Positions 24,001 through 36,000 of a stretch of 64,000 nt of DNA are shown here, piece after piece. Source of the DNA: Escherichia coli (GTDB lineage: Bacteria; Pseudomonadota; Gammaproteobacteria; Enterobacterales; Enterobacteriaceae); NCBI RefSeq assembly GCF_045037415.1, contig NZ_CP173438.1. The stretch is one strand, 5' to 3'. Position 1 is the first letter of the stretch; every line of letters starts with the position of its first letter. A program made the position numbers.

Positions 24001-27000
24001 AGGCGGGGCTGCAGGAGCTGGCGGGCAACGCTACCATGCTGTTCTACATGACGGAAGAAGGTCAGGAAGGTCGCAATGCTTTCAACCAGAAACGTCAGCC
24101 TGATTTCAGCAAATTTAAACGGAATCCGTAATGCGTAGCGCGCAGGTATACCGCTGGCAGATCCCCATGGACGCGGGGGTGGTTCTGCGCGACAGGCGGT
24201 TAAAAACCCGCGACGGGCTGTATGTTTGCCTGCGTGAGGGTGAGCGCGAAGGGTGGGGGGAGATCTCCCCACTGCCGGGCTTCAGTCAGGAAACCTGGGA
24301 AGATGCGCAAAGTGTGCTGCTTGCCTGGGTAAATAACTGGCTGGCAGGCGATTGCGAATTACCGCAGATGCCTTCCGTTGCCTTTGGCGTAAGTTGTGCA
24401 TTGGCGGAGCTGGCAGATACGCTCCCGCAGGCGGCCAATTACCGTGCGGCACCGCTGTGTAATGGCGATCCTGACGATCTGATCCTCAAACTTGCCGATA
24501 TGCCTGGCGAGAAAGTGGCGAAGGTCAAAGTGGGATTGTATGAAGCCGTGCGCGACGGCATGGTGGTGAATCTGTTGCTGGAGGCAATTCCGGATCTGCA
24601 TTTGCGTCTTGACGCGAATCGCGCCTGGACACCGCTGAAAGGCCAGCAGTTTGCCAAATACGTTAACCCGGATTATCGCCACCGCATCGCATTTCTCGAA
24701 GAGCCGTGCAAAACCCGCGATGATTCGCGTGCGTTTGCCCGTGAAACCGGCATTGCCATTGCCTGGGATGAAAGCTTGCGCGAGCCGGATTTTGCCTTTG
24801 TAGCTGAAGAGGGCGTGCGCGCGGTAGTTATCAAACCCACGCTCACGGGCAGCCTGGAGAAAGTACGCGAGCAGGTGAAGGCGGCGCATGCGCTGGGGCT
24901 GACGGCGGTGATCAGTTCTTCCATTGAGTCGAGCTTAGGTCTAATGCAACTGGCGCGGATTGCTGCCTGGTTAACGCCAGACACCATTCCGGGACTGGAC
25001 ACGCTGGATCTGATGCAGGTGCAGCAGGTTCGTCGCTGGCCGGGGAGTCCACTGCCGTTAGTGGACGTTGATGCACTGGAGCGGCTGTTATGATCTTCTC
25101 TGACTGGCCGTGGCGTCACTGGCGGCAAGTGCGGGGAGAAGCCATCGCCTTACGTCTTAATGACGAGCAACTCAACTGGCGCGAGCTTTGTGCTCGCGTC
25201 GATGAATTAGCCTCCAGCTTTGCGGCGCAGGGTGTGGTTGCGGGCAGCGGCGTGATGTTGCGGGCGTGGAATACGCCGCAAACGCTGCTGGCCTGGCTGG
25301 CGTTACTGCAATGCGGGGCGCGGGTGTTGCCCGTGAACCCTCAGCTGCCGCAACCGCTGCTTGAGGAATTGCTGCCCAATCTTACGCTGCAATTTGCGCT
25401 GGTGCCGGAAGGGGAAAACACGTTTCCGGCGTTAACGTCGCTGCATATTCAGCAGGTTGAAGGCGTACATGCCGTGGCGTGGCAGCCGACGCGTCTGTGC
25501 TCAATGACGTTAACCTCTGGTTCCACTGGCTTGCCGAAAGCCGCTGTTCATACTTATCAGGCTCATCTTGCCAGCGCCGAAGGGGTGTTATCGCTGATTC
25601 CGTTTGGCGATCACGATGACTGGTTGCTCTCTTTACCGCTGTTTCACGTCTCCGGTCAGGGAATTATGTGGCGCTGGTTATACGCTGGTGCGCGGATGAC
25701 GGTACGTGATAAACAGCCATTGGAGCAAATGCTGGCAGGCTGTACGCACGCTTCACTGGTGCCAACACAACTCTGGCGTTTGCTGGTTAACCGTAGTTCC
25801 GTTTCCCTGAAAGCGGTTTTACTTGGCGGCGCGGCTATCCCGGTCGAGTTGACGGAACAGGCGCGCGAGCAGGGGATTCGGTGCTTTTGCGGCTATGGTC
25901 TGACCGAGTTTGCCTCCACGGTGTGTGCGAAAGAAGCCGACGGTCTGGCAGACGTCGGTTCGCCGCTGCCGGGTCGGGAAGTGAAAATCGTAAACGACGA
26001 AGTGTGGCTGCGGGCTGCCAGCATGGCAGAAGGTTACTGGCGTAACGGGCAACGGGTTCCACTGGTTAATGACGAAGGCTGGTACGCCACGCGCGATCGC
26101 GGTGAGATGCATAATGGCAAGCTGACCATTGTCGGACGTTTAGACAATCTGTTCTTCAGTGGTGGCGAAGGCATTCAGCCAGAAGAAGTCGAGCGCGTTA
26201 TTGCTGCACATCCTGCGGTTTTGCAGGTGTTTATCGTTCCCGTTGCTGACAAGGAGTTTGGTCATCGACCGGTAGCGGTGGTGGAGTATGACCAGCAAAC
26301 CGTTGATCTTGGCGAATGGGTGAAAGATAAGCTGGCCCGTTTTCAACAACCGGTGCGCTGGCTGACTTTACCGCCGGAGCTGAAAAACGGCGGTATTAAA
26401 ATTTCACGTCAGGCGTTAAAAGAGTGGGTGCAACGCCAGGATTAAGAAATCATTAGTTTCACTTCGCAATTTTGCCATTCCATTGCCGTTGATAATAGGT
26501 TTATCTGTTAATCTGTAAATTGATGTGAAAACTCTTATCAAACAGGATAATGCAATGGAATGGCTGGTCAAAAAATCGTGCTGCAATAAACAAAATAACA
26601 GACATGTACTTATGCTCTGCGATGCTGGCGGCGCGATAAAAATGATCGCCGAAGTGAAGAGTGACTTCGCCGTGAAAGTGGGGGATTTACTCTCGCCTTT
26701 GCAGAATGCGCTTTACTGTATTAATCGTGAAAAGCTGCACACGGTGAAAGTTCTTTCTGCAAGCTGTTATAGCCCCGATGAGTGGGAACGGCAGTGTAAA
26801 GCGGCAGGGAAAACTCAGTAACGTTGTTTTGTTGTGGGCAGGAAAATCAGCATCAACCCGCTCATAATACAGGCTACTCCCAGTAGTGCTTTCAGCGAAA
26901 AAGTCCCTTCCCAGCCGGGAAGTACCATTGAAGCAATCCATACCAGCACATAACTCATACTGAGCAAGGCATAGGCTTTGCTTAGCGCAAGTTTATGTAG

Positions 27001-33000: not shown

Positions 33001-36000
33001 TAACAGGGTGGATTTCAAACATGGCTTATTGTCCTGCGAGTTGCTGAAGGGCTGTGATGACGCGGTCGGCATCGGCGGTGGTCATATCCGGGAACAGCGG
33101 CAATGAACAGATGCGTTCGCTATTCCATTCGGTATTCGGTAACGACAGCGTGGGAAAACGCTCGCGATAATATTTTTGTGTGTGAGCAGCGCGGAAATGT
33201 AACCCGGTACCAATGCCTCTTTCTTTTAACGCTTCCATCAACGCATCGCGACTGATACCACAACGTTGTTCATCGACACGAATAATAAACAGATGCCAGG
33301 CGTGAACGTGCGGCCAGGCGGGAAGGCTTAATGGCTGAAAGGGGAGAGTTGCCAGTGCTTGCTGATATTGCTGGGCAATTTCGCGCCGCCGGGTGTTGAG
33401 GTGCTCTAATTTGACTAACTGTGTCAGGGCAATCGCGGCGTTAATATCGGTCAGATTGTACTTATAGCCCGGCGTTAAGACTTCAGCCTGCGGTGCACGG
33501 CCCCAGGTATGTCTGTCATAGGCATCGACACCCAGACCGTGAAATTTCAGCATCCGCAGCTGGCGGGCAAGATTTTCATTATCAGTAACAATCAGGCCAC
33601 CTTCCGCACAGGTAATATTTTTGATGGCGTGAAACGAAAAAATAGCGGTACCTTTTGCGCCAATATGTCGCCCTTTGTAATACGTACCTACGGCATGGGC
33701 AGCATCTTCGATAACTGCGATGCCGTAACGTTCGCCAATGGCGCGAATGGCGTCAATATCTGCTGGCGCACCGGCATAATGCACCGGAATGATGGCTTTA
33801 GTGCGTGGTGTAATGGCTGCTTCGATCGCTTCAGGCGTGACCATCAGCGTATCGCGGTCGACATCCACCATTACCGGCGTTGCACCCAGCAAGGAAATCA
33901 TATTGAGGGTTGAAACCCAGGTCAGGGAAGGCGTAATCACTTCATCGCCCTTGCCAATTTCCAACGCCATTAGCGTGATATGCATTCCGGCGGTGGCTGA
34001 ACTGACCGCGATGGCATGCTGATTTCCCGTCAACTGGCAAAAAGCTTGTTCAAGCGCCTGATTCTTCGGACCGGTTGTGATCCAACCGGATTCGAGAACC
34101 TCTTTAACTGCAGCGAGTTCCTCTACGCCCATTGCTGGTCGCGAAAAAGGCAAAAATCCTGACATTGTTTTTCCATCCGTCATTGAATACCTGTCCACTT
34201 ATATTTGCTATAAAGAGTGTTGTGTATATTTTGCCATTTGGAGCAAAATTTTAAGGATAGAATATTAACTTAACCTTAAGAAACTAATATTAGACGTAAA
34301 TATTGAAATTTTTATATTTTTTCTTATTTAGACTTTGCATTTGGCAAAATTTTGAGGCATTTTGCCGGCATCATAGGATTTTTAATATTACACCAACTGC
34401 TAATTATCGCCAGAAAAGTCGCTCAATTTCACGGTAATTGTCTGGTTGCGCTTGTCTACAGGTGGAGTTTACGTGTTAGCTTTTTGCCGATCTTCGTTGA
34501 AGTCAAAAAAATATTTCATCATTTTACTGGCGCTCGCTGCAATTGCCGGACTGGGGACTCATGCCGCCTGGAGTAGCAATGGTTTGCCACGCATCGACAA
34601 TAAAACACTGGCCAGACTGGCACAGCAGCACCCGGTTGTCGTTTTGTTTCGCCATGCTGAACGTTGCGATCGTTCAACCAATCAATGCTTGTCAGATAAA
34701 ACAGGTATTACGGTCAAAGGTACCCAGGATGCCCGTGAACTGGGCAACGCTTTTAGTGCTGATATCCCTGATTTTGATCTCTATTCCAGTAATACCGTCC
34801 GGACTATTCAGTCGGCGACCTGGTTTTCGGCGGGTAAAAAGCTGACGGTAGATAAACGATTTCTTCAATGCGGTAATGAGATTTATAGTGCAATTAAAGA
34901 CTTACAACGCAAAGCACCTGATAAAAATATCGTTATTTTTACCCATAATCATTGCCTGACATATATTGCTAAAGATAAGCGTGATGCGACATTTAAACCT
35001 GATTATCTGGATGGTTTAGTCATGCATGTGGAAAAAGGCAAAGTTTATCTGGATGGGGAATTCGTTAACCACTAAATTTTCAATCTGACAGCCAGTGATG
35101 GCTGTCATCATTGTTAAAGAAGACCTTTCAAACGTAACGTTTTTCGGGTGGCAACATTCAAATCATAATGCACCAGATCTTCAGGTTTTACCCACGCGTA
35201 GTCCTGAAACTCTTCGTTTATTTTCACATCTCGGTTGGCAGAAACGCAGTCAAAAATCAGGTAAATCATATAAATCTCTTCCTTGCGACCATCTGCATAC
35301 GTCTTGGTGCGAATATCATCGCTGAAGGTCCACGGCGTGATTTCTGTCAAAAGCAGCTGTTCTCCCAGTTCTTCGCGAATTTCGCGGCGTAGTGCCTCTT
35401 CAATTCGTTCGCCAGGCTCCACGCCGCCACCCGAAAGCGCCCATTGACCGGGGAAAACGCCGCGATCGTCGGCCATTTTACACAGCAAATAAGCACCATC
35501 ATTTTGAATCAAAGGGCATACAATAGTCCGTTGTCGCACAGGGGTATTCCTTATAAATAAAAAGAAACCATGAGAATACGGTAACTCAGAAATATGTGAA
35601 AGTGACAGTAATCTCTTTTGCGATGATAACTACATTTATTATTATTTTTGTGTGTATCGATAAAGTGTGTTTATTTTTTCGGCGTTTAATTATTTAAGAA
35701 GTATTTAGTTACAATAAGTGACTAGATCCCTTTTTTCGCTCATTGAATCCTCTGCGCCAGGCAGTACAATCCCGCAGCTTTGGGAATTTTGATTAATTGC
35801 TTGTGGGAAAGAGGATAATGAAAAAAATTGCGCTAGCAGGTCTGGCCGGAATGCTGTTGGTTTCTGCATCGGTCAATGCAATGAGCATCAGCGGCCAGGC
35901 GGGTAAAGAATACACCAATATTGGTGTCGGTTTTGGGACTGAATCGACGGGCCTGGCGTTAAGCGGTAACTGGACACATAACGACGACGACGGTGATGCC

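Follow-up and report, generated by a model that had tools for sequence, protein, structure and literature searches.

Do the stop/start overlaps that join nearly all genes of the E. coli arnBCADTEF operon mark a chain of translationally coupled genes, do they merely follow from compaction of the genome, or do they arise from misplaced start codons? This operon (also pmrHFIJKLM) serves modification of lipid A with aminoarabinose and polymyxin resistance. In the 64,000-nucleotide stretch of E. coli chromosome analysed here (the window), whose arn region is nearly the same as that of E. coli SK1144 (NZ_AP018784.2), the operon is a single transcription unit on the minus strand, running from arnB at 34165 down to arnF at 26815. 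All seven coding sequences translate cleanly in the RefSeq annotation: arnB (33026-34165, 379 aa), the first gene of the operon, is followed by arnC (32054-33022, 322 aa), arnA (30072-32054, 660 aa), arnD (29185-30075, 296 aa), arnT (27533-29185, 550 aa), arnE (27201-27536, 111 aa) and arnF (26815-27201, 128 aa). The order B, C, A, D, T, E, F agrees with RefSeq, and each of the seven products scores above the curated NCBIfam equivalog cut-off (score/cut-off: ArnB 738/631, ArnC 672/529, ArnA 1255/777, ArnD 523/382, ArnT 813/567, ArnE 210/92, ArnF 137/99). The ArnF model is also matched by ArnE, with an E-value of 9.5e-14.

Stop and start codons overlap by 1 or 4 nt at five of the six junctions, and the largest untranslated gap is the 3-nt spacer between arnB and arnC (33023-33025; +3, TAAgccATG). 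The arnC stop TAA (32056-32054) shares one nucleotide with the arnA ATG (32054-32052) in the sequence TAATG (-1), and the arnA stop and the arnD start share ATGA at 30075-30072 (-4). The arnD/arnT junction at 29187-29183 is TGATG, in which one nucleotide is common to stop and ATG (-1), arnT and arnE again share ATGA at 27536-27533 (-4), and arnE/arnF at 27203-27199 is TAATG, likewise with one common nucleotide (-1). Every arn overlap listed in the earlier note thus matches the sequence. The same is true of the overlaps that it listed on the plus strand, three in men and four in nuo: menD/menH shares ATGA at 22501-22504 (-4), menC (24131-25093) overlaps its neighbours on either side (menB/menC -1 at 24131, menC/menE -4 at 25090-25093), and -4 overlaps can be read for nuoE/F (2416-2419), nuoG/H (6529-6532), nuoJ/K (8626-8629) and nuoK/L (8925-8928). 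Further overlaps in the same window, absent from the earlier note, are glpB/glpC (-4), glpA/glpB (-11) and nrdB/yfaE (-1); over the whole window, 14 of 39 adjacent same-strand pairs are spaced at -1 or -4.

All six arn junctions, at -4 to +3, lie in the range of stop-start distances for termination-reinitiation (TeRe), about -8 to +10 nt (PMC10666635). Genome-wide, 24% of unidirectional E. coli pairs have a spacing between -8 and +6 nt (PMC10666635); with this published fraction as the basis, the probability that six of six junctions fall in that range by chance is 0.24^6, or about 2e-4 by our own arithmetic. The arn genes are therefore packed more closely than expected by chance, and the nuo and men operons, likewise tight, are alike in this respect.

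The start codons on which these distances depend were supported, as chosen in the earlier note, mostly by evidence other than the overlaps. In tblastn comparison of the E. coli proteins with 80 species, the alignments start at query residue 1 almost everywhere; starts in orthologues were called as the start codon closest to the E. coli N-terminus, a rule that could mask lineage-specific starts. The annotated methionine is also where the NCBIfam equivalog models begin, and the junction geometry recurs in gene calls made independently for Salmonella and Erwinia. For five of the six downstream arn genes, the open reading frame offers no possible start codon ahead of the annotated one, and an in-frame stop lies 1-16 codons before it. 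The annotated arn starts are accordingly regarded as correct on comparative grounds, and the overlapping codon as the genuine downstream start. The further argument that the overlaps speak against longer N-terminal extensions holds for arnF only; of the 13 downstream genes whose overlaps the earlier note named, 12 have no start codon in their reading frame before the overlapping ATG, and hence no extension. The raw arnF frame reaches GTG 27483 and would encode 222 aa instead of the annotated 128 aa. This extension was rejected, as the ArnF model covers only residues 98-216 of the 222-aa frame.

The overlap argument is inapplicable to arnB, since no gene of the operon precedes it. Its raw open reading frame of 390 aa begins at GTG 34198, and position 1 of the NCBIfam ArnB model aligns at residue 12; most orthologues carry in-frame stops 1-5 codons before the sequence MS[DE]FLPFSRP. 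On both grounds GTG 34198 and ATG 34183 were rejected in favour of ATG 34165. The earlier note ended the operon at 34198, which is the GTG of the raw frame and lies 33 nt past the supported start, and its own end coordinate thus retains an unsupported arnB extension. Farther upstream, a direct repeat, CTTAAGgttaaGTTAAT, can be read on the minus strand at 34264-34280, which resembles the PmrA consensus and may be a PmrA/BasR box of the arn promoter. A TAAAAT hexamer resembling a -10 element is found below this putative box. The transcription start guessed from it would lie upstream of GTG 34198, so it gives no argument against the arnB extension. Counts in a promoter and terminator scan equal the shuffled expectation, and no internal signals can therefore be claimed, while an Rfam scan of 26000-35200 yielded a single sub-threshold chance match.

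The overlaps are maintained across Enterobacterales while their geometry flips repeatedly between -1 and -4. Conservation was examined in the 80 closest species returned by a genome scan, of which 77-79 could be counted per junction. At arnC/arnA, 77 of 78 species retain the overlap (52 of them at -4 and 25 at -1), and an AGGAA is conserved upstream; overlap is likewise retained at arnA/arnD in 66 of 78, at arnT/arnE in 70 of 77, and at arnE/arnF in 74 of 77 (-1 and -4 in 37 each), with a conserved GGGAG Shine-Dalgarno sequence. The most labile junction is arnD/arnT, overlapping in 47 of 79 species and spaced at +1 to +88 in the other 32; the arnB/arnC spacing in orthologues is mostly +1 or +2. 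When mapped on the ArnA tree, at least 10 state changes with one loss of overlap are found at arnC/arnA, and at least 11 at arnE/arnF, only three of them to or from a non-overlapping state. Because the geometry at these two junctions has changed at least 10 times and overlap has almost never been lost, maintenance fits better than drift. Three distant ArnD representatives lie in rearranged loci with overlaps at arnD/arnT (-1), arnE/arnF (-4) and formyltransferase/arnD (-4), a set too small for statistics.

The junctions differ in the means by which a free ribosome might be recruited. Usable Shine-Dalgarno motifs of -4 to -7 kcal/mol precede arnA, arnT, arnF (moderate in these three) and arnC, the AGGA for the last sitting within the 3' end of arnB, and that of arnF has a median energy of -7.1 across orthologues. 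The motif of arnD is weak (-3.3 kcal/mol). No Shine-Dalgarno sequence precedes arnE, where the best pairing in E. coli is -1.7 kcal/mol, a value equalled or bettered at 67% of random operon positions, and the median across 77 orthologues is -0.5. Folding of the six junction windows is no better than that of shuffled sequence (z from -0.8 to +1.6), and RNAalifold predicts no conserved pair among 31 arnT/arnE junctions.

What such overlaps can do is known from other pairs. Pairs at -4 and -1 are usually coupled, as found for 4 of 5 E. coli pairs tested, and in menD/menH, the one junction of the window for which coupling has been measured and published, about 60% of translation is coupled and about 40% arises by de novo initiation (PMC6728339). 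The bioB/bioF pair, also at -4, is uncoupled with full de novo initiation (PMC6728339), and together with the partial coupling of menD/menH this means that a -4 overlap is not sufficient for coupling. A stop-start distance of about 10 nt or less is required, and short overlaps are over-represented in genes for heteromeric complexes (PMC10666635). Distances for the arn, men and nuo genes of K-12 are tabulated in the 2023 supplement of the same paper, which also contains the wild-type menD/menH junction sequence (PMC10666635). Our literature search found no coupling experiment on arn and no paper in which "translational coupling" and "arn operon" occur together; searches for arnE/arnF ribosome profiling and for arnBCADTEF overlaps or start codons returned nothing relevant. 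The arn genes are unmentioned in the main text of a low-Mg Ribo-RET study, the supplements of the TRAINSPOTTER N-terminomics study have no arn or menH entries, and a kasugamycin translatome paper has no nuo, men or arn content.

The best explanation, to which we give a probability of roughly 0.7, is that the starts are correct, the overlaps are maintained, and the arn junctions are coupled by termination-reinitiation, a coupling that we infer from overlap geometry. A ribosome terminating at the upstream stop would re-initiate at the overlapping AUG, and each downstream gene would yield product in step with translation of the gene before it. This dependence should be strongest from arnT to arnE, which carries a Shine-Dalgarno sequence in no lineage, and weaker at arnA and arnF, where the Shine-Dalgarno sequence may permit some de novo initiation. 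The likely benefit would be that the pathway enzymes, and the ArnE/ArnF heterodimer, are made in fixed proportions. The 7.4-kb mRNA would also be translated continuously, leaving no ribosome-free gap at the junctions for Rho loading. Since arnE lacks both a Shine-Dalgarno sequence and a conserved structure masking its start, termination-reinitiation is most likely at this site. A stronger proposal, which we hold only tentatively and somewhat doubt, is that arnT/arnE is an obligate site of Shine-Dalgarno-independent reinitiation across Enterobacterales, arnE being open to translation only by ribosomes that come straight from completing arnT.

The overlaps might instead be a neutral by-product of compaction, with free ribosomes initiating each arn gene de novo and no functional coupling. 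Such overlaps arise easily, as a start codon supplies three of the four bases of ATGA and loss of a stop extends a gene to the next one. The de novo initiation at bioB/bioF despite its -4 overlap and the usable Shine-Dalgarno motifs of arnA, arnT, arnF and arnC are as this account would have them, and arnD/arnT drifts freely among -4, -1 and +1 to +88, its overlap being absent, with no evident harm, from 32 of the 79 species, which counts against coupling. In RRF-depletion studies coupled pairs were unaffected, likewise in favour of this account, and the mechanism is still under debate (PMC12548453). Neutrality nevertheless accounts poorly for arnE, which keeps its overlap in 70 species despite lacking a Shine-Dalgarno sequence in about 77, and for the near absence of overlap loss at arnC/arnA and arnE/arnF; the coupling of four of the five tested E. 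coli -4 pairs also speaks against it. We consider it unlikely, although it is the most serious competitor of coupling by termination-reinitiation.

Coupling could also be achieved if ribosomes on the upstream gene melted a structure hiding the downstream ribosome-binding site, so that new ribosomes initiate de novo, a mechanism established for atpHA. The AUGA does lie within a stem in the minimum-free-energy fold of the E. coli arnT/arnE junction, but neither unusual nor conserved structure was found at the junctions, which is evidence against unfolding, and arnE would still lack a Shine-Dalgarno sequence for recruiting a new 30S subunit; this route is thus quite improbable. Still less credible is that some annotated starts are wrong, the true ones lying upstream or at an internal codon, and that the overlaps are annotation artefacts. 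The 222-aa frame of arnF might be cited in its favour, as might crystal structures 1MDO and 4OCA, for which Salmonella ArnB was used with a length of 385 aa, but five downstream genes have no upstream start codon at all, family models and orthologue alignments begin at the annotated methionine, the arnF extension is left uncovered by its model, and stops interrupt the arnB extension in most species.

Coupling by termination-reinitiation would place the arn junctions among systems already described. The -4 (NTGA) and -1 (TRATG) pairs coupled in this manner are identical to them in geometry, co-orientation and operon location, and also vary in Shine-Dalgarno strength (PMC6728339, PMC10666635, reviewed in PMC12548453). 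Within this class, coupling has been measured for menD/menH, whereas at the arn junctions it is a prediction, and, except for ArnE/ArnF, the operon encodes enzymes of a pathway and not subunits of one complex. SMR pairs of the ArnE/ArnF type form heterodimers, and mdtI/mdtJ and ebrA/ebrB are adjacent SMR genes encoding obligate antiparallel heterodimers (PMC9574504). Like these, arnE and arnF are adjacent and SMR-type, with a junction kept in 74 of 77 species; unlike them, they encode a glycolipid flippase within a seven-gene operon. The likeness of arn to the E. coli trp operon lies in the stop/start overlap within a biosynthetic operon and in the presumed function of proportional synthesis. 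Its trpB/trpA and trpE/trpD are classic coupled pairs, and coupling at the trp stop-start overlap was reportedly described by Das and Yanofsky in 1989. The trp coupling is experimentally proven and joins subunits of one enzyme, whereas the arn coupling is drawn from sequence, and we know of no complex formed by arn products other than ArnE and ArnF.

The arn overlaps are real and conserved, yet they are an ordinary feature of bacterial operons and already catalogued; the result opens no new question, and little changes beyond the view of the arn genes as one tightly packed translational unit whose RefSeq starts are right. This view is useful for the design of non-polar deletions and expression constructs in studies of polymyxin resistance, as moving an upstream stop by deletion or insertion may shut off the gene after it, above all arnE. 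If the obligate arnT-to-arnE link were true, synthesis of the ArnE/ArnF flippase would be hard-wired to that of the transferase using its product, undecaprenyl-phosphate-linked intermediates might thereby be kept from building up, and the junction would offer a natural model for Shine-Dalgarno-independent 70S reinitiation. An overlap that is kept while -1 and -4 interchange, together with an arnE gene lacking a Shine-Dalgarno sequence in every lineage, provides a small and tidy example of selection acting on the geometry of junctions.

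The seven arn genes occupy the minus strand in the order arnB (33026-34165), arnC (32054-33022), arnA (30072-32054), arnD (29185-30075), arnT (27533-29185), arnE (27201-27536) and arnF (26815-27201). Their translations are all free of internal stops, and each protein scores above the curated cut-off of its own NCBIfam equivalog model. By megablast, 26815-34198 is matched in 5,420 of 5,426 complete E. coli genomes and is 100% identical in several strains. The SK1144 annotation of the stretch reads pmrD, arnF, arnE, arnT, arnD, arnA, arnC, arnB and ais, flanked by nuo and men genes, and 47 kb of the window match this record at all but 3 bases. 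The IS1397 copy of SK1144 between yfaL and ubiG is absent from the window, where the segment at about 59400-60900 is 100% identical to strains 4/1-1, 4/4, 2/0 and 4/0, with a yfaA fragment annotated in those. An ISNCY-family transposase gene with an adjoining truncated pseudogene lies at 42092-43321, between yfaU and glpC. Elsewhere, IS1 is inserted in arnA of E. coli GCU-H1 (4109-4806 of its locus), strain 23753 has the same 777-bp gain as judged from length alone, and AGR6128 carries an ISL3 transposase within the arn operon. Such IS-bearing operons are natural knock-outs of the pathway in some E. coli strains.

Read directly from the sequence, stop and start codons share 1 nt at arnC/arnA (TAATG), arnD/arnT (TGATG) and arnE/arnF (TAATG), and 4 nt (ATGA) at arnA/arnD and arnT/arnE, while arnB and arnC are separated by 3 nt (TAAgccATG). 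The overlaps listed in the earlier note are all found, including those of nuoE/F, nuoG/H, nuoJ/K and nuoK/L (all -4), menD/H and menC/E (-4) and menB/C (-1); it had missed glpB/glpC (-4), glpA/glpB (-11) and nrdB/yfaE (-1), within 43514-47578 and 51197-52581. Spacings of -1 or -4 occur in 14 of the 39 same-strand neighbour pairs of the window, and they are the commonest spacings across all prokaryotes (PMC12548453). The range from -8 to +6 nt holds 707 of the 2,987 unidirectional pairs (24%) of E. coli K-12 (PMC10666635). All six arn junctions fall in it (chance about 2e-4 against all unidirectional pairs, presumably less extreme against within-operon pairs only), so that arn, like nuo and men, belongs to the tightly spaced extreme of a well-known distribution. 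The supplement of the same 2023 paper gives K-12 distances for arnA/arnD (-4), arnD/arnT (-1), arnT/arnE (-4) and arnE/arnF (-1, flagged as a complex), and also those of men and nuo (PMC10666635). Neither the phenomenon nor these distances are new; a literature search found no paper discussing translational coupling in arn and brought up no retrievable start-site data on its genes.

The overlaps had also been taken to support the chosen start codons and to argue against longer N-terminal extensions. The starts are borne out, mainly by orthologue alignments and family models. In tblastn of the seven E. coli Arn proteins against the arn loci of 80 species, by far most alignments begin at query residue 1, and independent public gene calls for Salmonella and Erwinia amylovora give the same starts and spacings. 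The argument from extensions is relevant for arnF, whose longer raw ORF (222 aa, from GTG 27483) aligns to the ArnF family model at residues 98-216, so that the family's N-terminus coincides with the annotated Met (residue 95); the other overlapped downstream genes have no extension to exclude. In arnC, arnA, arnD, arnT and arnE, an in-frame stop lies 1-16 codons upstream, with no ATG, GTG or TTG between it and the annotated ATG, which makes extension impossible, and the overlapped downstream genes of men and nuo likewise all begin at their first possible start. As the first gene, arnB is a separate case. The end formerly assigned to the region, 34198, is 33 nt too far, being the GTG of the raw arnB ORF (390 aa). 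Most ArnB orthologues have in-frame stops 1-5 codons before the conserved MS[DE]FLPFSRP, where the family model also begins, and ATG 34165 (379 aa; RefSeq) is thus the start supported by sequence comparison. Both this GTG and ATG 34183 (385 aa), the form crystallised for Salmonella ArnB (1MDO, 4OCA), are disfavoured by the same evidence; the 6-residue extension is open in Escherichia and Salmonella only.

Upstream of arnB, a direct repeat, CTTAAGgttaaGTTAAT (34264-34280, minus), is followed about 10 nt downstream by a -10-like hexamer, TAAAAT; by its look we take the repeat to be a putative PmrA/BasR box. At the other end, arnF and the convergent pmrD (26555-26821, plus) overlap tail to tail by 7 nt (26815-26821). 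In E. albertii the spacing is likewise -7 and in S. diarizonae -6, whereas the two genes do not overlap in Citrobacter (+2 or +3) or Salmonella (+2). With no space left for a terminator, transcription of either gene must continue antisense into its neighbour, and such read-through could connect PhoP-driven expression of pmrD with PmrA-driven expression of arn.

The 80 loci come from Escherichia albertii, Citrobacter, Salmonella, Klebsiella, Enterobacter, Erwinia, Pantoea, Dickeya, Serratia, Proteus, Morganella, Yersinia, Rahnella and a few MAGs. When each orthologue is taken to begin at the start codon closest to where the E. coli N-terminus projects, a -1 or -4 overlap is found at arnC/arnA in 77 of 78 species (-4 in 52, -1 in 25), arnA/arnD in 66 of 78, arnD/arnT in 47 of 79 (others +1 to +88), arnT/arnE in 70 of 77 and arnE/arnF in 74 of 77 (37 of each). 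The geometry of arnB/arnC (33023-33025 in the window) is unlike that of the other five: an overlap of this kind occurs in 7 of 77 species and a tiny spacer is almost always kept, +1 in 39 of 77 (as a rule TGAtATG) and -14 to +9 in the others. By Fitch parsimony on an ArnA neighbour-joining tree, arnC/arnA underwent at least 10 changes among -4, -1 and other states with a single loss of overlap, and arnE/arnF at least 11, only 3 to or from non-overlap; arnD/arnT underwent 17, 10 of them between overlap and non-overlap. Thus, except at arnD/arnT, overlap is kept while its exact form turns over, an indication that the overlap is maintained, by selection or a strong mutational attractor, and not simply inherited. 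Three distant ArnD relatives (48-55% identity) lie in rearranged loci where overlaps are still present (arnD/arnT -1, arnE/arnF -4, formyltransferase/arnD -4). Two distant ArnD representatives, P0126 (612 aa, deformylase domain at residues 306-596) and the likewise longer P0128 (458 aa), may be fusions with another domain. Three MAGs labelled Betaproteobacteria, Burkholderiales or Proteobacteria (L066, L071, L072) carry full arnBCADTEF in enterobacterial order, with ArnD 62-63% identical to that of E. coli; this could reflect mis-binning, horizontal transfer or true conservation.

"Extensive translational coupling", as the earlier note headed its remark, is a reasonable inference for arn. Of five native E. 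coli -4 pairs in reporter tests, three were tightly coupled, bioB/bioF was uncoupled and menD/menH was about 60% coupled, with 40% de novo initiation (PMC6728339), so that the sole measured pair of the window is coupled in part only. Coupling collapses beyond about 20 nt, and heteromeric complexes are 4.5-fold enriched at short spacings (PMC10666635). ArnE and ArnF are SMR-type proteins, like the products of paired SMR genes, which form obligate heterodimers (PMC9574504); this fits arnE/arnF being second only to arnC/arnA in conservation of overlap. The mechanism is unsettled among 30S scanning, 70S scanning and de novo initiation, and depletion of RRF leaves coupled pairs unaffected (PMC12548453). 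Coupling through RNA unfolding has no support in arn, since folds of -70 to +30 nt at each junction are unremarkable (z-scores -0.8 to +1.6) and RNAalifold predicts no conserved pair among 31 arnT/arnE junctions. Termination-reinitiation, in which a ribosome finishing the upstream gene would restart at the overlapping AUG, is the best reading. Shine-Dalgarno energies (pairing with the 16S 3' end) range from weak to moderate: -5.7 (arnB), -4.0 (arnC), -5.4 (arnA), -3.3 (arnD), -5.9 (arnT), -1.7 (arnE) and -6.9 kcal/mol (arnF). Among the window's 12 overlapped downstream genes, arnE pairs most weakly, and its energy is equalled at 67% of arbitrary operon positions; the orthologue medians are -0.5 for arnE and -7.1 kcal/mol for arnF. 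Junction alignments show AGGAA conserved before arnA and GGGAG before arnF, and no conserved Shine-Dalgarno-like motif before arnE. Reinitiation is probably obligatory for arnE and probably partial where a Shine-Dalgarno sequence lets ribosomes enter de novo. What is added here to the known overlaps is the turnover between -1 and -4 with overlap kept, and an arnE that is universally without a Shine-Dalgarno sequence.
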